Part shown: in pieces, positions 1,878-59,588 of the stretch | How positions within the stretch are numbered: the stretch's first letter is position 1 | Layout: every line of letters starts with the position of its first letter | Source of the DNA: Candidatus Poribacteria bacterium | GTDB taxonomy: Bacteria; Poribacteria; WGA-4E; PCPOR2b | Assembly (NCBI GenBank): GCA_965215015.1 | Contig: OZ244042.1 | Span: 2,137,557 to 2,201,556, forward strand | DNA: 64,000 bases | Reading direction: 5' to 3' | Program-made: the position numbers and the translations under genes | Notes under the pieces: model-generated | Database searches by the model: none | What the model saw: only the letters and a program-made list of their open reading frames with translations | What the model was told of the DNA's origin: nothing

Positions 1878-2055
1878 GGACTTACGCATTTCAGTAGGAA
1901 AACCGATTGGCGTTCCCTACGAACTCTTATGGAGTCTTTGTTGTAGTTACCCGATTCATCGGGCGTTAGGAAGGGGAGCCAGCGGCGATAAATCGCCGAG
2001 CTACAAGTCAAAGACTCTCGGAACGGAGGCTTCGAGCGTTCAACTGCGTAAGTCC
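1878..2055. repeat. MITE-like dispersed repeat with termini ggacttacgca...tgcgtaagtcc and internal cccgattcatcgggcg and gcgataaatcgccg hairpins
   Basis: Terminal inverted repeats are visible directly. Related copies lie at 14486-14680, 31247-31409 and 33646-33759, with longer relatives at 17692-18210, 18472-19045 and 63859-64000. Confidence 0.55.
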
Positions 2056-2233: not shown

Positions 2234-3175
2234 ATGAAATACGTCCTTGCGATCTGCTTAATTGGAGCAAGCACTTTTTTTATTTCATGTCATGATGAAG
2301 AGGGAGCAGCACACTATAATCGCGGAAATGCTTATCAGGAAGAAGGCAGATTTAATGAAGCGATTTTAGCATACAAAAAGGCGATTGAGGTAGACTCCAA
2401 CTTTGCAGAAGCGCATTATAACTTGGGAAACGCCTATTACCGCCAAGGGCAAATTGATGAAGCGGTACTAGCGTACAAAAAGGCAATCCGCATCAAGCCG
2501 GATTTTGTGGAGGCACGTAACAGCCTAGGACTCGTTTATCGTATACAGGACAACAATGAAGCTGCGATAGTAGAGCTCAAAGAGGCGGTCAGCATTGCCC
2601 CGGATAATGCACAAGCGCATAACAATCTGGGCCGCACTTACATGGAACAAGATAAATTTGAGGAGGCTATTGCTGCATTTGAGCGAGCAATTCAACTCAA
2701 TCCGGATAGTACATACGCTTACTACTATCTCGGAAACTCCTACAAAGCACAGGGCAAGTTCGGCCAAGCCATCGCTGCGTTCAAGAAGGCTGTTGCGATA
2801 AGCCCTTACGACGCTTTATCTCATCATAATATGGGGATTTCTCTTTATAATCTGAATCGGTTCGATGAAGCCATAACTCACTTTGAAACGGCGGATCGCA
2901 TTAGTCCAAACTTGGCAAATCTACACAACAACCTAGGGAATGCCTACAAAGCACAAGGTAAACTTGATGAAGCTGCTGCTGCGTTCGAGAGAGCAGCGAG
3001 CGTCAATCCGAGCGATGCAATAGCATATTACAATTTGGCAAGCATCTATGCTGAACGAGGCGACGCTGGAGGTGCTATGAAGCAGTACAAGCAGGCCCTC
3101 CATTTGGCTCGTACCAATCCTGACCTTCAGGAACTTATCCCTGAGCTAGAAGGTCGTATTAAGGCGTTAAAATGA
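2234..3175 (+). CDS. TPR-repeat lipoprotein
   Basis: A lipoprotein-type signal (MKYVLAICLIGASTFFISC) is followed by at least 8 canonical 34-aa TPR units (AxxYxxLGxxYxxxGxxxEAxxxYxKAL). Confidence 0.8.
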   Translation: MKYVLAICLIGASTFFISCHDEEGAAHYNRGNAYQEEGRFNEAILAYKKAIEVDSNFAEAHYNLGNAYYRQGQIDEAVLAYKKAIRIKPDFVEARNSLGLVYRIQDNNEAAIVELKEAVSIAPDNAQAHNNLGRTYMEQDKFEEAIAAFERAIQLNPDSTYAYYYLGNSYKAQGKFGQAIAAFKKAVAISPYDALSHHNMGISLYNLNRFDEAITHFETADRISPNLANLHNNLGNAYKAQGKLDEAAAAFERAASVNPSDAIAYYNLASIYAERGDAGGAMKQYKQALHLARTNPDLQELIPELEGRIKALK

Positions 3176-3573
3176 AGTAAACCCTTTCAATAGCGTCGGA
3201 GGAAAACAGGCACATTATTGGAATTGGTTATGAGTATACTGTCGTTACAAGTGCTCACCGTCTCACAAATTAATAAGTTGCCACTTAAAGCCCCAGGGGC
3301 GATATGTGTAGCATTGAGTTGATGTACAATAAATCACGAGACTCATATTAAAAGAAAGTGCAAAGCACGAACAGCCCCCGAGCTTTCGGCAAAAACTCGG
3401 GGGCTGTTGCACGATTTCTTAACATGAGCCAATCGGGAAAACCACTATTGGTAAAGTTTCAAAGGGGAACCAGAAGAATCGCGAAGAAATATCCGGCGTC
3501 TGGGTTTAACGGATTAAATTTGATTGCCGAAGCTCGTACTGACCGATGCACATTATCGCCGAAAGGAGACGAT

Positions 3574-5726: not shown

Positions 5727-5823
5727 GTAGGGACTAACGATCGTTAGTCCCTACATACACATGGCTCCTTAGCCTTTGTCCCTTTCTATGAGCCAGTAGG
5801 GAACGCAAATCTGCGTTCCCTAC
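5727..5823. repeat. Pair of perfect 28-bp palindromes sharing the stem GTAGGGA...TCCCTAC
   Basis: gtagggactaacgatcgttagtccctac (5727-5754) and gtagggaacgcaaatctgcgttccctac (5796-5823) lie between convergent genes. Neither is followed by a T-tract. Confidence 0.4.
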
Positions 5824-5854
5824 AATCTGAAGTGCGTAAGCGCAAATGCAAGCC

Positions 5855-8226: not shown

Positions 8227-8620
8227 TTGTTCACTCCTTTAATAAGAATAAATTAACCCACGTTGCTAGGTTCCGTTGACATTTGACAAATTAAGTCAAT
8301 TCTGATGCACTTGAAGCAACTGTGGACTCCAGCTTTCTGTCAGTCTATATTGTGGTCAGGTACAAGCCCCCGATGGATCAGGCCTAAGAAGCCTACCCTA
8401 TATTTCGTCGATTCCTGTATATGAACACCTCTCAGGTTTGAGAGCGTTCGTTTTATCGCTGCGAATCCACGGGAGGACAGCGGCAATATTGTCAACCTTC
8501 TCTCTGAGAGAAGTGGTATCGGTTTGACGTACTCCCAGCCCTAAAGGCTTGGGATTCTTACCTTTAGGAGTAGAATCGCTCTATCTAACAGGCGTCAAAG
8601 AGAGCCATCCGAAGATGGGC

Positions 8621-14082: not shown

Positions 14083-14485
14083 TTTTACCTCCTATATAAT
14101 TTTCCATCCTACCATATAACCCAAGTTGCTAGTAGTAGGCATACTCTGGCCCGATGGGATCGGGATTCAAAGCAATATACCGTAACCGATGTGCAAATAT
14201 GGAAACTTGACCTACGATCTAACTAGGTTCTGTTGACATGTCATCGCAACCGGATAATCGAGGACTGTGCAAAGACACACGGTCCTTTCGTAGGGGTTGG
14301 GGCTCCTAACCCGCTTTGGTCAATGGGCGAGGCGACCTCGCCCCTACGAGGACGGACAGTTTCACATAAATGTCAATACGCCCTAGCAATTTGGATTATT
14401 TTGTAGAAAGCAAGTTGTGGCACAGATTTCCTAATCTGCGGTTATGTCCCGATGCAAAATCGGAGGCGGCTGTGTGTCAATGTTA

Positions 14486-14680
14486 GGACTTACGTAGTCG
14501 AGTTTGTAGCAGTGTAATTCAACCCACGTCTTTAAGACAGTAGACACGCTCCGCGTGCCTGCTACTGTTCAGATGAACTGGAGTTGCCCGATTCATCGGG
14601 CGTCGTGACTCATATAGATACCAACACTGTCGCACAGCAGTGTCAGGTGTTGGCTTTGAACGTTCAACTGCGTAGGGCCT
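14486..14680. repeat. MITE-like repeat copy (ggacttacg...cgtagggcc) with an internal cccgattcatcgggcg hairpin
   Basis: It shares its termini and internal palindrome with the copies at 1878-2055 and elsewhere. Confidence 0.5.
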
Positions 14681-14809
14681 AACAATAAGGTAACCTTTGA
14701 AGCAATCGTAGAGCCTGCCCTCGATGAAATCGGGGTTAGCAAACCTACGCCACGATCGGATTGCGATTAGTTGTCGAGTGTGGAAACTCGACACTACAAG
14801 AGCAGTCCG

Positions 14810-17365: not shown

Positions 17366-17691
17366 CTCTAATATACCTTACCTTTCATGACAAACCGACT
17401 GCTAAATAAGTGAGGAGGTGCTCGTAAAGTAGTAGGCCCGTTCCGTGTGTCGTAAACCCCACAACCGTTATGGCACATGGCTTGGCTAACACACAACTGC
17501 CATTAAAATTCTAACCATAACTTGAAGAACAAAGCACTGCCAACCCCGGGGGCATCTTGCCTCATCTACCGCCTGAGCTCCCTATCTGTATCCGTGCAAT
17601 CTGCTGCATCAGTTTAATCCGTGTCTCAGACAATAATTATGAGCATCCCTCATCTATATTTGACTCAGTTCTTTGTGTTCAGTATAATATA

Positions 17692-18471: not shown

Positions 18472-19045
18472 TAGGATTACGCAGTTGAACGTTTAAACGA
18501 AACACCAAACACTACTGCGCTACTGTCCGGGTGGGTCGAGCCAGGATTATGGCGCAATGGTCCTGGTATCTTTCGGTGACTCATCAAATACTAGGTGTGT
18601 CACTCGACAGTGTTTGGTAAATTGAAAACACCAAGTATGTTGCGCGATAGAATATCAGACACTGTTATGCCCCATGATTGGCTCCATCCGCCCGGGAGAT
18701 TGTGCAACGGTGGCGGTTGTCCACTGTTGCATGACAGTGTTGGTATCTATACAACTTACGCCGCACAATGAATCGGACAACTCTAGTTCATCCGACAGTC
18801 GTATGCACGCTCCACGTCCCCTCCCCCTGCTAAATACCCGGTGGGTCGTCCCTCAGTTCCTAGCTCATTGAGCCTAGAGCGGTCTGATACCGTGTGAGTA
18901 TTCGGGACTGAGGGGGGTATCCTGAATACCCACACGGTTTCCCCTCTGCTTGCGGGGCGAAGGGACACCGTATGCCGACTCCCTTAAAGACGCGGGTTGA
19001 ATTGGGCGACTACAAACTCAAGTGCGTAACTCCTAACTTATAGCC
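18472..19045. repeat. Second copy of the composite element, about 570 bp
   Basis: It starts aggattacgcagttgaacg and ends caagtgcgtaactcctaac. It aligns with 17692-18210 by eye, for example ...gtgttggtatctataca/gac... and ...cgtatgccgactcccttaaagacgc... Confidence 0.5.
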
Positions 19046-31224: not shown

Positions 31225-31246
31225 TCCATCGAATTTTACAGTAGAT

Positions 31247-31409
31247 AGGAACTTACGCGGTTCAACCCTCAAAGCCGTGTCGAGCGGCGATAAATCGCCG
31301 AACGACACCTTTGCCAACGCCCGATGAATCGGGCAACTACAGCAAGAGCGCCATTAAGGAATCCGTAGTGAACACCGATTGTTGTTCACTGCGGAAGTGC
31401 GTAACTCCT
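31247..31409. repeat. MITE-like repeat copy (ggaacttacgc...gtgcgtaactcc)
   Basis: It contains the gcgataaatcgccg and cccgatgaatcgggc palindromes. The copy at 33646-33759 is its partial reverse complement. Confidence 0.5.
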
Positions 31410-31507
31410 TAAGTAGATATAAAATAGAGGAACCAAGTTTTTGACAAAAACTCGGTTTCTACGCTTGTGCTTGCCGACGTAGCAGACTCGGATTAAATTA
31501 CGTTGAG

Positions 31508-33393: not shown

Positions 33394-33645
33394 AATTGTA
33401 ATTTCCTCAATTTTATATGCTAGATTACTCACGCAAAGGTTAGGGACTGTTCACATGCTGCATGTTTCAAGTTTGTCTAACACATTATTGGTTATAACCT
33501 CTTAGCTTGTCAAGAGATTCACCGACGAGGTTGTTAGGAGGCATAATTTTTCCGTTGACGCGATGCCCAAGCATCTGTATTATAGAGACCCTTGAGGTGA
33601 AAACCTCACAGAGGAACGCAATGTAAAAAGAAATAGGAGTTACGC

Positions 33646-33759
33646 ACTTCAGTATGGATTCTCTGCTGTAGTTGCCCGATTCATCGGGCGTTGTCAATGG
33701 TGTCGTTCAGCGATTTATCGCCGCTTGACACGGCTTTGAGGGTTGAACCGCGTAAGTCC
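33646..33759. repeat. MITE-like repeat copy in reverse orientation
   Basis: ggagttacgca...cgcgtaagtcc. Internally it is the reverse complement of the 31247-31409 copy. Confidence 0.5.
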
Positions 33760-33891
33760 TAAAGAAAGGGCAACGTACGAAGAGAAACCGTAGGGGCGCG
33801 GCCACCCCGACCACACTTGTCAAAAACCCGAATTCTATGGCACGATTTCTTAACATGGGCGCAAAATAAAACCAAAGGAAGCCAAGCAATA

Positions 33892-39593: not shown

Positions 39594-40022
39594 TTTTCAT
39601 CGAATACACGAAAATATCTTTCCTTCATTTTCTTAATTTCTGGGGCAATTCCACTCTCATAACTTAGATTGACAGATGCAAACTAAAACCGATACATTTG
39701 CCAATTCGTTAGAATTGTATCAATTGTTCTTGTTCTTATTGTGCCATATCTTCACAAAATTCGGCAAGAATTATCCGTTTGAAGCTCGATTGATAATTTT
39801 CAAAAAAAAACTAGGTTCTGTTGACATTCGATAAATTGAGCCGATCTCCGTGCTTATGAGCACCCCTCCTAGAACATTGCGCTATGGAATACCAGATACT
39901 GCTGAGCCACACGATTGGATCCATCCGCCCGGAACATTGCGTTATAGCGAAATTATATGAAAAAATCATTGAAAAACTATTGACAGATTATTAATAATCG
40001 TTTATGGTATTAACCCCTATCG

Positions 40023-45652: not shown

Positions 45653-46038
45653 CTAGCGTTATGGACTCAAATGTGATAATCGATTCTAGGGTTGGGGGGA
45701 GTTGAACGACCAGTACGACGACCTAGAAGGACAAAGATCCAGTGAATAAGCCCGCCCCAACCAATCGGGAAGAGTAAACAGATTAGAACGTTAAAAATGA
45801 CTTCCATGCACGACTCCAATTCGATGCAATATCAAAATCTGCTCGTAACGCCCAGTAGAAGTAGGGGTAATTTCTTGTTTGCCCCTCACGGATAGGCACC
45901 TACCCCTGACAACTTGAGAGCTCTAGACCTCTATCAGTAGAGACATTAGGGACTTACGCCATCGTGTACTCATACATTGCAAGTATAGACTAAAGTTGTG
46001 GTATTGTCAAAGGGAAAAATTGATCGAAGTCTTTTTGC

Positions 46039-48330: not shown

Positions 48331-49038
48331 ATGGGCAGATATGCCTACTATTACAATCTTGCTAAAACTCATCTGGATCAAGGAGATTCTGGTCGTGCCC
48401 TCATAAACTTTACCTTAGCACAGCGACAGAATCCCAATCGTGTCGAGGCCTATTACGCTCGTGCTACGGTTCACCAGCTGAGAGGCAATCATGATCGCGC
48501 CAATGCAGATTTGACCACGGCACAGAACCTCACGAGAATTTCCTTTGCTGAGTTTGATTTAACGAAGGCCAACGAATTTGTAGAGAGCGATGCCGGATTA
48601 AGCCTTATAGAAAACCAGGACGCGAACCCTAGTGATATTCTTATAAGGAAACTCGGCGAGATTGCCTTTGCTAAATTTCTATATGAGCATGATAAGGCAT
48701 TCTTGAATGATGCCAATCAACTTCTAACATGGGATGATGTTTATACATCGGACAGACTGAATCTCCAGACTTGCGACGGCCAAACTGTTGATGTTAAGGC
48801 ATCCAAATTCCAAAGCATAGTGGTTCCATATAATAATAAACCAAGGGATTATTACGTCGGAGTTGGAATTTCAACGGATAAGACAATAGGTACAGTGGAG
48901 GGTTTTATTCATAGAGATGGACTAAAGCCCTCTGAGTCTAACATTCCCGATCCATGTCTTCAAAGAAAATTTGAATCACTTAAATGTATCGAAGACTTGC
49001 TTGAAATGATGCCTGAGGCAGAAAACGGTGCGAGCTAG
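48331..49038 (+). CDS. TPR-like N-terminus fused to the same roughly 170-aa module found at the RpoB C-terminus
   Basis: Residues from about 68 to the end align at roughly 80% identity with RpoB residues 1536-1706 (RISF.E.DL.KANEF...GEIAFAKFL...[16 protein letters not shown]...MPEAENGA). Confidence 0.55.
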   Translation: MGRYAYYYNLAKTHLDQGDSGRALINFTLAQRQNPNRVEAYYARATVHQLRGNHDRANADLTTAQNLTRISFAEFDLTKANEFVESDAGLSLIENQDANPSDILIRKLGEIAFAKFLYEHDKAFLNDANQLLTWDDVYTSDRLNLQTCDGQTVDVKASKFQSIVVPYNNKPRDYYVGVGISTDKTIGTVEGFIHRDGLKPSESNIPDPCLQRKFESLKCIEDLLEMMPEAENGAS

Positions 49039-49180
49039 GTCCCACGGGAGAATAATAAACAAATGTGCCCCCTATCCCCAATACCTGCCCTTGTGATGGT
49101 GGGTATGCACCCCATTAGAAACGGATAAGATCTCTCTCGTTCTTACCGAAAAAACTTTAGGTCTGTTCACGCATTACCTA

Positions 49181-54275: not shown

Positions 54276-57200
54276 ATGCCCCATCCCGTCAAATATGGCA
54301 AGCGTGAAAGATTATCTTTTGCAAAAATTCCGGAGATTATGAATCTCCCCGATCTCATCGAGGTTCAAAAATCCTCCTACGACGAATTTCTTCAACAAAA
54401 TATCCCCCCAGAAAAGCGTAAAGATAAAGGCTTACAAGCCGTTTTCAACGAAATCTTTCCAATCCCCGATTTCAGCGAAACTTCCGAACTTCAGTTCGTT
54501 AGTTATTCACTCGGTGCCCCTAAGTACGACATTAACGAATGCCAATCCCGTGGGTTCAATTATGCCCTGCCGGTGAAGGTTCGTGTCCAATTGGTTCTCA
54601 GAGAAAAAGATCAGGACACCGGTGAAAATCAGCTGATTGATATCAAGGAAAATGAAGTCTATATGGGCGAAATCCCCTTGATGACGGAAAACGGTACTTT
54701 CATCATCAACGGCTCTGAACGGGTGATTGTCAGCCAGCTACAACGATCTCCCGGTGCAACGTTTGGGGAAGATACCCACACCAGTGGACAGACACTCAAC
54801 ACTGCGAAGATTATTCCGTATCGAGGGGCGTGGATTGAATTTGAGTGCGACATCAAAGATCTGATTTATGTCCGGCTCGATCGACGAAAAAAAATGCTCG
54901 TAACTGTTCTGCTCCGGGCACTGGGTTGGGAAACCGATGAAACCATCCTCCATCTGTATGCCAAGACAGAGTGTGTTCAGCTCGATGATTCCCTGATTGG
55001 TCGGGTGACGGCTGCTCCTGTTGAATATTCTGTCCCTGAAGATATCTTGCTTGAAGCAAATACAAACACAGAGCGTGTCAATCTAGCTGACGCTCCAATT
55101 GGTCGGTTGATAGCTACTCCTGTCGAATACAAGCACCCTGATACTGGAAAAGAGGTCTTGCTTGAAGCAAATACGAAATTGACAGCAGAGCAGATTTCGG
55201 ATTTGCTTCAAGCAGATATCAGCGAAGTTGTAGTTGAAGCAAATACAAACACAGAGCGTGTCAATCTAGCTGACGCTCCAATTGGTCGGTTGATAGCTAC
55301 TCCTGTCGAATACAAACATCCTGATACTGGAAAAGAGGTCTTGCTTGAAGCAAATACGAAATTGACAGCAGAGCAGATTTCGGATTTGCTTCAAGCAGAT
55401 ATCAGCGAAGTTGAAGTTATTCCTGTCGAATACAAATTACTCGAAGCAAATGTGGAGTTGACAGAAGAGGCAATAGACGATTTGCTTGAGGCAGGTATCA
55501 GCGAAGTTGAAGTTTTAGACGCAGATGATGCAGAAGAAATCCGTTTTCTGCGAAATACGCTCAATCGTGATCTCCAATCGGAGTATAAACTGCCGTTAAT
55601 TTTTAAAGTGCCATCAGACCTCCAAAGTGATTTGACAGATAATGCACCGGTGTCAGAGACATGGCGTCAACAGTTTAAAGACAGTGGCACCTCTCTGTCC
55701 TCTACCGCGATCATGCAGGTAAAAACAGCAGATCGCCGTTGGCGTGTATTAAACAAGAATAATAGAGAGAACTTTACCATTGAGAAAATAGGGGATACCC
55801 TCAACGTCTATCGGGGAAGTATCCAAGACTTGGCGGTGGTTGAAATCTTTCGTAAGCTGCAACCGGGCGACCCGCCTACAATCGAGAGCGCGCACAACCG
55901 ATTTGAAAAGCTATTTTTCGATTCAGTGCGCTACGATCTCGCAAAGGTAGGGCGGTATAAGCTTAATGAAAAGCTTGGCAACCTTTCCCTGTATCGGAAC
56001 GAGGACGAAGTAGTAGATGAAACGATTCGTGTCCTGCGTGCGGCGGACATCGCCGCGGTTCTCCAATACCTGATACAGGTGCAGAATGGAAACGGAGAGA
56101 TGGACGATATCGATCACCTCGGTAATCGTCGAGTTCGCGCTGTCGGAGAACTGTTGCAGAACCAGGTGCGGATGGGGATGCTGCGAGTTACCCGGGCGAC
56201 GCGAGAGCGGTTGACAGTTCAAGACTTGGAAAGTGTAACCCCTGCCGACTTGATTAATCCTAAACCCTTGACCGCTGCGATCAAAGATTTCTTCGGATCG
56301 AGTCAACTTTCCCAATTCATGCAGCAAGCCAATCCGCTAGACGAGTTAACCCATAAACGCCGCTTGAGTGCATTGGGCCCCGGCGGACTGCATCGGGAAC
56401 GTGCAACCTTTGAGGTACGGGATGTCCATCGTACTCACTACGGACGAGTCTGCCCGATTGAGACACCTGAAGGCCCTTCGGTGGGGTTAATTGTTTCCTT
56501 AAGTACCTACGCGCGGGTCAATGCCTACGGCTTTATGGAAACACCTTATCGCAAGGTGTCTGAGGGCAAAGCAATCAATCGGATCGATTATTTGTCCGCC
56601 GATAAAGAAGATACGTTCACCATTGCACAGGCACATGCTGTCCTCGATGAGGACGGAACGATGGAAGGCGACCTGATGGTTACACGGCAAAAGGACGATT
56701 TTCCCCGGAAGTTAGCACCAGAAATCGATTACATTGATGTCTCCCCGAAACAAATCGTTGGTGTTTCTGCCGCGCTCATTCCCTTCCTTGAGCATAACGA
56801 TGCGAACCGTGCATTGATGGGGAGTAACATGCAGAGACAAGCTGTACCGCTCATCCGGCCAGAAGCTCCGTTGATTGGGACTGGTATGGAACATAAAGCT
56901 GCTCGCGATTCTGGGGCAGTTGTACTGGCAAAGCGGGATGGCATTGCAGAAAGCGTCTCTGCATCTGAAATCATTATCCGCACGGATGATGCCTTCCGGA
57001 TTGCTCATGGAGAGCAGTCGTTCAGCGAAATGGGCTACGATGTTTATCGCTTGACCACCTTCAAGCGATCCAACAGTGGGACCAGCCTCCACCAACGCCC
57101 ATGTATAAATGTCGGAGAACAGATAAAAGCCGGTCAAGTGATTGCCGATGGCACCTCAACAGAGAATGGAGAGCTGGCCCTCGGCAGCAATATCCTAATC

Positions 57201-59396
57201 GCATTCATGTCTTGGGAAGGATATAATTATGAGGATGCTATCCTCCTCAACGAGTCACTCATCGCTGACGATACTTACACCTCTATTCACATCGAAGAGT
57301 TTGAGGTAGAAGCGCGTGATACGAAGATGGGATCCGAAGAGATTACTCGAGATATTCCAAACGTTTCTGAGGAAGCTTTGGCGCAGTTAGATGAGGAGGG
57401 GATTATTCGCATCGGTTCAATTGTCCGTCCGGGAAGCATTCTTGTGGGCAAGGTGACCCCGAAGGGAGAGAGTGACCTCGGCCCCGAAGAAAAACTGCTG
57501 CGTGCAATCTTTGGTGAGAAAGTCGGCGAAGTGCGCGACGCTTCCAAGTATGTCAAGCCCGGCACCGAGGGGGTTGTTGTTGATGTCAAGGTCTTCTCTC
57601 GGAAAGAGCGGGACGGGGACCGTCAAACGGAATTACGGGAGATCGCGAAAAAGAAAGAGGTGGAGAAGGAATGGGAGGCGAAATGTGGATTAATTAACCA
57701 ACGCAAGGACGACGAGATCCGCAACATACTGCTCGGTCAAAAACTCGCTAGCAGTGTTTCTAACGACACAGAACTCATTGCTAGGCGGGGAAAGATTGTA
57801 ACAGAAGAGTTGCTGGAAACGGGCGTTCCGTTGGAACAATTTCATGTTAGGGATGCTGAGGCAATGGAGCTCATCCAACGCATTCAACAGTTGGCGCAGG
57901 GGCGTATTGATGCCCTGACGGAAGAAAAGAAAGCACAAATTGAGAAAATCGAGAAGGGCGACGAGTTGAAGCCGGGGCTTCTCAAACTGGTGAAAGTTTA
58001 TGTAGCGATCCGTCGAAAGATCTCTGTCGGCGATAAAATGTCCGGGAGACACGGCAATAAGGGAGTCGTTTCAAAGATTCTCCCACAAGAGGATATGCCC
58101 TATCTGGAAGACGGTACGCCAATCCAAATCATCATGAATCCGTTGGGGGTTCCGGGGCGCATGAATGCGGGACAGATTCTGGAAACGCATTTGGGGAGGG
58201 CGGCAAAGGAACTTGGATTATATATTACCACGCCGGTCTTTGATGGGGCGGAGGACCCGGAAATTCGTAAGCTCTTACGAGAGGCAGGGCTGCCCGAACA
58301 CGGAAAAGCGAAGTTGTATGATGGTCGAACCGGGGAACCCTTTGCCCAAGAAGTGACTGTCGGATATACTTACATTCTCAAGCTCAATCACTTGGTAGAT
58401 AATAAAATCCACGCCCGCAGCACAGGACCCTATTCGTTGGTGACTCAGCAACCGCTCGGTGGCAAGGCACAGCAAGGTGGCCAACGTCTCGGTGAAATGG
58501 AGGTGTGGGCATTGGAAGCATATGGGGCTGCCTACACCCTTCAAGAATTACTCACAATTAAATCCGATGATGTCATTGGAAGGAGCAAAATCTACGAAGC
58601 GATTGTCAAAGGAGAAAATGCCCCCGCGCCCGGCACTCCAGAGTCATTTAACGTTCTCGTGAAGGAATTACAAAGCCTTTGTCTAGATGTAGACCTAGAA
58701 CAGACATCTGATGCCCCAGATACTTTTGATGCCCCAGATACTTTTGATCTTACGCCTGAGAAACAGAACCTGCAGACATCTAATGCCCCAGATACTTTTG
58801 ACCTTGCCCCTGAGAAACAGAACCTGCAGACATCTGATGCCCCAGATACTTTTGATCTTGCCCCTGAGAAACAGGACCCCACGAGAATTTCCTTTACTGA
58901 GATTGATTTAAAGAAGGCCAACGAATTTGCAGAGAGCGATGCCAGATCAAACCTTATAGAAAACGAGAACGCGAACCGTGAGTATATTCGTATAGGGAAA
59001 CTCGGTGAGATTGCCTTTGCTAAATTTCTAGATAAGCATGATAAGGCATTCTTGAATGACGCCAATCAACTTCTAACATGGGATGATGTTTATACATTGG
59101 ACAGACTGAATCTCCAGACTTGCGACGGTCAAACCGTTGATGTTAAGGCATCCACATACCAAAGCATATTGGTTCCATGTAATAATGAATCCAAAGATTA
59201 TTACGTCGGGGTTAAAATTTCACTGGATAGGAATAGGAAAATAGGTACAGTGAAGGGTTTTATTGATAGAGATGGACTAAAGCCATTTACTCACCCTGAC
59301 ATTGATAAGCCATGTCTTCAAGGAGAATTTGGATCACTTGAATGTATCGAAGCCTTGCTTGAAATGATGCCTGAGGCAGAAAACGGCGCGAACTAG
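54276..59396 (+). CDS. rpoB: DNA-directed RNA polymerase subunit beta carrying lineage-specific BBM2 repeats, a C-terminal acidic repeat linker and an extra C-terminal module
   Basis: Canonical RpoB blocks are present: the rifampicin region, [17 protein letters not shown], and [28 protein letters not shown]. The canonical end ...[21 protein letters not shown] is followed in frame by about 230 additional residues. Confidence 0.9.
55054..55420 (+). repeat. Perfect 183-bp tandem duplication inside rpoB, encoding two BBM2-like units
   Basis: 55054-55236 and 55237-55419 are nearly identical. Each encodes [59 protein letters not shown]. Confidence 0.7.
58704..58880 (+). repeat. Three 54-bp in-frame repeats at the 3' end of rpoB encoding an acidic 18-aa linker unit ([18 protein letters not shown])
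   Basis: Read directly from the sequence. Confidence 0.7.
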
Positions 59397-59476
59397 GGCC
59401 CACGAGAAAATAATAAACAAATATGCCCCCTATCCCCAATACTTGCCCTTGTGATGGTGGGTATGCACCCCATTAG
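58881..59476 (+). other. Low-GC duplicated cassette: C-terminal module of RpoB plus about 80 bp of 3' flank, paralogous to 48533-49120
   Basis: Nucleotide identity is about 88% across roughly 590 bp and includes the post-stop sequence aataataaacaaat.tgccccctatccccaatac.tgcccttgtgatggtgggtatgcaccccattaga. Confidence 0.65.
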
Positions 59477-59588
59477 ATTGGGAGTCGGAACATGATGTAT
59501 GAAGTGTGGAAGAGGAGAAGTCCGAAAAAATAGAAGTGCTTCTCTTCTAATCTTCTAATCTTCTAATCGTTAATAAGGGAGAATAGCC

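Follow-up and report, generated by a model that had tools for sequence, protein, structure and literature searches.

What kind of sequence occupies the gap around positions 1,878 to 2,055 of this 64,000-nucleotide stretch of a Candidatus Poribacteria genome (hereafter the window, i.e. the whole stretch of DNA that was analysed), and is it a mobile element or a regulatory structure? The earlier note on this DNA had described a MITE-like family with at least eight copies and had left both possibilities standing. Poribacteria form an uncultivated, mostly sponge-associated phylum with genomes of 6-7 Mb. The analysis presented here indicates that the copies very probably constitute a non-autonomous DNA transposon (MITE) family, specific to and abundant in Candidatus Poribacteria. 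The family is apparently new and undescribed, and no mention of MITEs in Poribacteria, of the element or of its sequences was found in the literature searched.

Unbiased repeat finding and sensitive self-BLAST within the 64-kb window linked all seven previously reported places, and a truncated eighth copy was located at 5727-5845, in agreement with the proposed count of at least eight. All window copies were confirmed to be intergenic, at a density of ~1 per 8 kb (7-8 copies in 64 kb). Multiple alignment revealed common ends (TAGGRSTTACGCAG...GCGTAASYCCTA), big internal indels and an end-to-end modular match, while the terminal motif GGRNTTACGCAG (≤1 mismatch) was observed 11 times in the window, compared with 1.4 expected, with none of 100 shuffles yielding 11; the shared terminal inverted repeats (TIRs) described in the earlier note are therefore genuine. 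Its places were likewise correct, with exact ends requiring correction (the start of S4 had been set 12 nt too far in). Its statement that only the last short copy is reversed did not hold, as the inverted one of the four short copies is S3, the other three (S1, S2 and S4) having a common orientation. The features below are given with coordinates that include the terminal TA, and with the orientation of copies relative to the long copy L1 (17690).

1869-1875 (left) and 2058-2064 (right), no strand: TTTCTCT, the 7-bp direct repeat flanking S1, by sequence and geometry test
1876-2057, minus: S1, 182 bp, both ends
5727-5845, plus: truncated eighth copy, two R3-type palindromes (GTAGGGACTAACGATCGTTAGTCCCTAC, GTAGGGAACGCAAATCTGCGTTCCCTAC) with the right-end remnant AATCTGAAGTGCGTAAG after them, without a left end
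14484-14681, minus: S2, 198 bp, both termini, hairpin R2 and the CAGTGTTGGTATCTATA module common to L1 and L2
17690-18204, plus: L1, 515 bp, long form with both termini
18472-19035, plus: L2, 564 bp, long form, 267 bp downstream of L1 and oriented as L1
28154-28176, plus: solitary GTAG-tagged REP hairpin GTAGTAGCGCAATTCATTGCGCG, of a type known as a module in related copies elsewhere
31246-31411, plus: S3, 166 bp, right terminus CTCCTTA (one T extra)
33634-33761, minus: S4, 128 bp
39868-39939, plus: isolated 72-nt fragment, 78-81% identical to the L2 internal module at 18631-18702, without termini
63854-64000, plus: L3, left end TAGTACTTACGCAGTTGACC and AACACCAGAAA module, cut at the window end

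Read in L1 orientation, S1 consists of the left end TAGGACTTACGCAGTTGAACG, a 13-nt insert (TCCGTTCCGAGAG), the GTAG hairpins R1 (GTAGCTCGGCGATTTATCGCCG) and R2 (CGCCCGATGAATCGGGTAACTAC), an R3-like palindrome (GTAGGGAACGCC..TTTTCCTAC) and the right end GAAATGCGTAAGTCCTA. Both palindromes of the truncated copy at 5727-5845 are of the GTAGGGAAC...GTTCCCTAC type, and its right-end remnant contains AAGTGCGTAAG. The interior of L1 was shown to harbour the AACACCAGAAA..GGTATC module, a degenerate R2 and G-rich/C-rich modules, while L3 lies directly 3' of the stop codon of a 1414-aa ORF (59589-63833). S3 and S4 are 95-96% identical over ~95 nt. The suggestion that two internal palindromes occur in all copies was upheld for CCCGATTCATCGGG, which is present in seven of seven (degenerate in L1 and L2), and not for GCGATAAATCGC, which is restricted to S1, S3, S4 and L3 and is missing from S2, L1 and L2. 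A lone terminus-like sequence, TTAGGGACTTACGCC, was also observed at 45947-45961 with no recognisable element adjoining it, representing either a remnant or a chance match.

Several further repeats were observed in the window. The 17-mer CTAGGTTCYGTTGACAT, which includes a TTGACA box, occurs four times compared with 0.12 expected (8266-8282, 14223-14239, 29543-29559 and 39811-39827, all on the plus strand) and again at ~2660 of locus L106; a longer form, CTAGGTTCTGTTGACATNTCATCGCAACCGG, is common to another Poribacteria species, and the 17-mer may represent a promoter or part of another repeat. The motif TTATGAGCAYCCCT was found five times compared with 0.56 expected (17637-17650, 28121-28134, 28269-28282, 29603-29616 and 39854-39867, all plus), two of these sites being situated 43-60 nt downstream of CTAGGTTCYGTTGACAT, and the 75 nt surrounding it are duplicated with 76% identity (17585-17659 and 28217-28291). 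A second dispersed family, GCACNNNTTCTTAACATGRGC, is located at 3409-3429, 27951-27971 and 33840-33860, with an inverted partner at 3342-3374; it is found at gene starts or close to them, often behind a AAAAACTCGGTTTC-type hairpin, and has related sequence in loci L036, L106 and L123. Larger duplications comprise ~600 nt shared with 90-91% identity between 48522-49119 and 58871-59477, corresponding to a 235-aa ORF (48331-49038) and the 3' end of a 1706-aa ORF (54276-59396) which itself holds 183-nt and 54-nt tandem repeats (55051-55514; 58701-58883), as well as adjacent paralogous genes of 234 and 235 aa on the minus strand (21872-23371) with a common 300-nt stretch that is 92% identical.

The architecture of the element was shown to be that of a REP mosaic within a TIR frame. 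The outer frame is formed by terminal inverted repeats of ~14 bp, 5'-TAGGACTTACGCAG...CTGCGTAAGTCCTA/G-3'. When copies were sorted by size, a 112-nt core became apparent, consisting of a left end (TAGGACTTACGCAGTTGAACGGTCAAAGCCCT), a first hairpin (GTAGTTCGGCGATTCATCGCCG), a 17-nt spacer, a second hairpin (CGCCCGATGAATCGGGCAACTAC) and a right end (AATCTGGAGTGCGTAAGTCCTR), with GTAG on the outer side of both hairpins; in the terms of PMC3733652, this core is a head-to-head heterodimer of GTAG-tagged REPs. Sub-families carry additional modules, namely a 28-nt palindrome, GTAGGGAAC(N10)GTTCCCTAC, adjoining the right end, a second REP doublet (GTAGTAGGGCGATTTATCGCCC..GCGCAATGAATTGCGCTACTAC), G-rich modules, the ~65-nt AACACCAGAAA..GGTATC module (L1, L2 and L3) and inserts of ~17 nt such as TCCGTTCCGAGAGTC in either orientation, and it is because of these additions that sizes range from 112 to 570 bp. 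The hairpin stems vary by paired changes that preserve complementarity, e.g. GGCGA/TCGCC versus GGTGA/TCACC and AACAACGATCGTTGTT versus AACGCAGATCTGCGTT.

Within the element, the GTAG-tagged palindrome that characterises REPs was found only among the internal modules (GTAGTTGCCCGATTCATCGGGCG, GTAGCTCGGCGATTTATCGCCG and GTAGGGAAC..GTTCCCTAC). Within the window, the CCCGATTCATCGGG hairpin was observed exclusively inside TIR-bounded copies, while the solitary hairpin at 28154-28176 demonstrates that hairpins of this kind also occur outside the element in the same genome. As a separate observation, the CGCCCGATGAATCGGGCAAC REP hairpin was encountered in another frame, ..ATACGGTTTCAAAA.CT.A.TGTTACACTCGTCAAAA(hairpin)TACAATCACCYGATGCGTGTAAC..ATTGATTGGGAATTAG, which represents a distinct repeat family sharing a module; its loci (L014, L035, L056, L057, L061, L075, L086 and L104) mostly derive from the Poribacteria genome CAXXCS...

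The distribution of the family was assessed by scanning one genome per species, across 185,579 species, for the 20-mer CGCCCGATGAATCGGGYAAC, which yielded at least 117 loci. Candidatus Poribacteria accounted for at least 95 of the listed loci, in 16 species-level genomes, and TIR-bounded copies were present in 15 of these 16 genomes among the matches listed, all counts being lower bounds. Across the window and the 117 listed loci, at least 86 candidate pairs of termini lying 97-721 bp apart were identified, with TAGGACTTACGCAG and CTGCGTAAGTCCTA at the two ends of six window copies and of 80 further candidates; the OZ242335 chromosome alone contributed at least 20 copies in the sampled blocks. 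Copy sizes were distributed from 97 to 566 bp, with modes of 112, 130, 160 and 180 bp, and minimal TIR-hairpin-TIR forms shorter than 92 bp were limited to two, both doubtful. An internal hairpin allowed 71 of the 86 candidate pairs to be oriented, and these 71 constitute the sample for the flank and context analyses.

Outside Poribacteria, the 20-mer was encountered, among the matches listed, under Nitrospirae, Nitrospinota, Anaerolineae, Actinomycetota, Elusimicrobia, Proteobacteria and Ignavibacteria labels. At the loci read, i.e. all of these except the Ignavibacteria one, it forms a bare GTAG hairpin amid other GTAG hairpins, without the Poribacteria termini. In the Poribacteria genome CAXXCS..., the same hairpins were mostly found in one-ended or TIR-less arrangements, which a simple TIR-transposon model fails to explain and to which REP-associated tyrosine transposases (RAYTs) may have contributed. 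The proteins encoded by the window itself include sulfatase, TPR and hydantoinase types, with best matches ~73% identical in the sampled Poribacteria DNA, and no overlap between the window and the fetched loci was detected; the window thus most likely belongs to a Poribacteria lineage outside the fetched sample. A metagenome scan with the window's aldo-keto reductase returned relatives of ≤77% identity, without synteny and without element copies. The cyanobacterial HIP1 sequence, GCGATCGC, was observed once in the window, i.e. at chance level, and thus provides no cyanobacterial signal.

Target-site duplications, which the earlier note had proposed as a check, were found for four of the six complete window copies as direct repeats of 6-7 bp. 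In addition to TTTCTCT at S1, these are ATAATA at L1 (17684-17689 and 18205-18210), AGTAGA at S3 (31240-31245 and 31412-31417) and AAGAAA at S4 (33628-33633 and 33762-33767), none being of the modal 5-bp length established from the larger sample. When the flanks of the 71 oriented copies were compared at every offset, an exact 5-bp direct repeat directly outside TA-GGAC...GTCC-TR was present in 31 of the 71, compared with 0-11 at other offsets and with 1000 shuffled pairings that gave 1.2 on average and never more than 5. Duplications of 4 bp (n=6), 6 bp (n=5) and 7 bp (n=1) were observed at the same position, and 27 of the 71 copies, including S2 and L2 of the window, have no clean duplication. 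The duplicated targets are AT-rich.

In two cases, comparison of orthologous loci between species revealed one filled and one cleanly empty site. The filled site of locus L017, cgacTTTGC-TA[GGAC..130 nt..GTCC]TG-TTTGC-gttaaa, corresponds to cgacTTTGCgttaaa in its empty orthologue (L076), and in the second case L036 carries an insertion with a 4-bp ATTA duplication at a site that is empty in L007; these empty sites originate from related genomes rather than from the window's own lineage. The comparison of filled and empty sites, together with the duplication, proves insertion, and the empty site shows that the terminal TA/TG belongs to the element and that the duplicated target is the outer 5-mer. 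The repeated unit thus inserts as a block with inverted-repeat ends, duplicating a target of 4-7 bp, modally 5.

The origin of the internal hairpins is indicated by RAYT genes, for which an E. coli RAYT was used as probe. At an Anaerolineae locus (L015), a 143-aa RAYT (Pfam Y1_Tnp PF01797, E 8.5e-9; NCBIfam REP_Tyr_transpos, E 3.4e-21) is encoded directly beside CGCCCGATGAATCGGGTAACTAC repeats. A Poribacteria chromosome (L013) harbours the C-terminal part of a RAYT-like gene, and a full-length gene ~80% identical to this fragment (P0001; NCBIfam E 8.5e-15) was identified at locus L120, where GTAGGGAACAACGATCGTTGTTCCCTAC lies on either side of it (2777-2806 and 3430-3457); RAYT-bearing contigs of the L120 type appear to be poribacterial. 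Since the same hairpins are situated beside or around the RAYT genes of L015 and L120, at least two modules of the element are REPs of RAYT systems. A third copy of GTAGGGAACAACGATCGTTGTTCCCTAC was also noted in frame within the L120 RAYT-like ORF (3164-3190), between the HUH and tyrosine motifs, encoding ..VGNNDRCSLR.., and the same in-frame palindrome occurs at ~3127-3155 of locus L123, where the N-terminal part of the RAYT-like gene has been lost to an in-frame stop and the copy is probably a pseudogene.

These findings raise the possibility that the whole unit is of the REP/BIME or REPIN type and is mobilised by a RAYT through Y1/HUH single-strand chemistry, the outer inverted repeats merely adding a further layer of palindrome. 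Y1/HUH transposition of the IS200/IS605 or RAYT type is not known to duplicate the target, which is difficult to reconcile with the fixed-position 4-7 bp duplication and the clean empty site. Furthermore, no RAYT gene was found in the window with the E. coli probe, and the confinement of the CCCGATTCATCGGG hairpin to TIR-bounded copies in the window also speaks against it. The possibility draws on the core, which is a head-to-head GTAG hairpin doublet like REPINs and HH dimers (PMC3733652), on the position of the same hairpins next to or on both sides of the L015 and L120 genes, on the partial gene in L013, on the description of TIR-associated Y1 transposases, or TIRYTs (PMC3733652), and on the one-ended and TIR-less arrangements. 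REPINs are distinguished by the lack of both a target duplication and outer TIRs, and the whole unit was not classed as a REPIN because it possesses TIRs and a 4-7 bp duplication. Mobilisation of the entire unit by a RAYT is consequently considered unlikely.

The possibility that the copies are structured non-coding or cis-regulatory RNAs (terminators or mRNA-stabilising hairpins), maintained by selection and not spread by transposition, was evaluated from their coding capacity, context and folding. The element encodes no protein: ORFs overlapping the long window copies do not exceed 93 aa and none has a called function. Predicted RNA folds, which the earlier note had proposed to compute, are strong: the two strands of S1 reach -69.9 kcal/mol (z -6.1) and -73.4 kcal/mol (z -5.0), respectively, and L1 has a z-score of -3.4, but folding is about equal on both strands. 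Conservation of stem complementarity through paired changes, and maintenance of the family across many species, are consistent with selected RNAs; paired changes are, however, equally expected for DNA hairpins recognised by a transposase.

Genomic context likewise did not suggest regulation. Intergenic positions are occupied by 69 of the 71 copies, whose distribution over tandem, convergent and divergent gaps (35/10/10) agrees in proportion with the background (294/58/66), and their orientation relative to flanking genes shows no strand bias (16 same, 19 opposite). A promoter and terminator scan inside the copies yielded nothing above the shuffled background and no T-tract terminators, so that the terminator or regulatory role entertained in the earlier note found no support. 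Searches of the window against Rfam gave no match at the gathering threshold, and the sole match overlapping a copy at E≤10 was a chance-level hit to Pseudomonas P11 through REP-like hairpins; tRNA and tmRNA genes are absent from the window. The 'Poribacteria-1' RNA motif was considered as an identity for the repeat and rejected, since neither a literature search nor Rfam yielded anything that would connect it with the element. A strand-specific RNA function is unlikely given the lack of an Rfam match, the equal folding of both strands, the absence of orientation bias and the absence of a terminator, and the presence/absence polymorphism with target duplication marks the copies as insertions; a purely RNA-based explanation of the family is therefore very improbable.

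Finally, an IS630/Tc1-mariner-type MITE that duplicates TA, as the TAGG...CCTA ends and the frequency of TA directly before GGAC (53/71) and directly after GTCC (42/71) might suggest, was refuted by the offset test, in which offset 2,2 alone gives a duplication peak, and by the empty site, which places TA...TG within the inserted DNA and the duplicated 5-mer outside it, the right end moreover being TG rather than TA in 25 of the 71 copies and the left CA in 14.

The interpretation as a MITE family was further assessed by comparison with known systems. Bacterial MITEs are non-coding elements of 100-600 bp with short TIRs, a target-site duplication and many intergenic copies, and they show size variants caused by internal indels as well as strong hairpin potential on both strands; among them, Correia elements duplicate a TA target. 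The group includes Correia/NEMIS of Neisseria, ERIC of enterobacteria, RUP of Streptococcus pneumoniae and Nezha of cyanobacteria (PMC3733652). The poribacterial element resembles these four in being small, non-coding, TIR-bounded, intergenic, size-variable and hairpin-prone on both strands, and in generating a duplication, whereas its sequences are unrelated to theirs, its interior consists of GTAG-tagged REPs, no parent IS is known for it and its host belongs to an uncultivated phylum. With respect to Correia elements, it also differs in its duplication, which is 4-7 bp (modally 5) rather than TA.

A second comparison concerns the REP, BIME and REPIN systems with their RAYTs, including REPs of the GTAG super-family and SMAG elements (PMC3733652, PMC2817692). 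The poribacterial modules share with these the form of 22-28-nt GTAG-tagged palindromes paired head to head as heterodimers across a conserved 17-nt spacer, their combination into mosaics as in BIMEs and, at L015 and L120, the proximity of the same hairpins to RAYT genes. In contrast, the poribacterial unit has additional outer inverted repeats and a target duplication, and its window copies are not accompanied by a RAYT; to our knowledge, REP, REPIN and RAYT systems do not duplicate their target. TIRtrons, or TIRYTs, in which RAYT-like tyrosine transposase genes are flanked by TIRs and not by REPs (PMC3733652), also link RAYT-type functions with TIR-type ends. They differ in carrying the transposase gene between their TIRs, whereas the poribacterial copies are non-coding and the poribacterial-type RAYT gene at L120 is flanked by REP palindromes and not by TAGGACTTACGC ends.

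The proposal that the copies are non-autonomous, MITE-like transposable elements is thus borne out by the TIRs, the duplications, the filled and empty sites, the lack of coding capacity and the occurrence in many genomes. In the proposed mechanism, the TIR-bounded unit would insert into AT-rich intergenic DNA, duplicating a short target (modally 5 bp, 4-7 overall). Based on the TIRs and the short target duplication, we infer a staggered-cut (DDE-type) transposase that would be supplied in trans and recognise the ends. REP hairpins may have invaded a TIR element or been recruited by it, which is the most economical reading, and would now spread along with the frame. If the copies influence the host at all, for example through mRNA hairpins or by displacing promoters, this would be secondary.

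The earlier note had pointed to a cognate transposase elsewhere in the genome as a further check; the search for one covered the window and 0.96 Mb of related loci and brought none to light. The same 0.96 Mb was screened for TIR pairs at a spacing of 750-6000 bp that bear a matching duplication, as expected of an autonomous copy, and none was detected; long TIR pairs in L076 and L019 were examined as autonomous elements and rejected, as they enclose ordinary metabolic or housekeeping genes. The 1018 ORFs of the sampled loci included no multi-copy transposase-like ORF, and a listing of the ORFs beside unpaired termini singled out no transposase candidate.

The spread of REP hairpin doublets is usually attributed to RAYT tyrosine transposases alone. 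A hybrid arrangement is tentatively considered as a possibility, with odds clearly short of even: either REP doublets have been packaged in a TIR- and duplication-generating element that acts as a second, mechanistically distinct pathway for spreading them, or a RAYT/TIRYT-like enzyme duplicates its targets. If true, such a hybrid would bridge the two main classes of small bacterial repeats and would explain why identical REP hairpins are found across several unrelated repeat families and phyla.

For annotation of the window, the consequence of the MITE reading is that the copies should be masked as repeats and not treated as regulatory RNAs. The insertions are dense and vary between species at orthologous sites, which makes them a useful marker for strain typing, for problems of assembly or binning and for dating insertions. 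For Poribacteria, the analysis provides a defined and testable mobile-element family with consensus ends, a target duplication and identified modules, and the nesting of RAYT-type REP hairpins inside an element with TIRs and a target-site duplication offers a concrete case of interplay between classes of small repeats.
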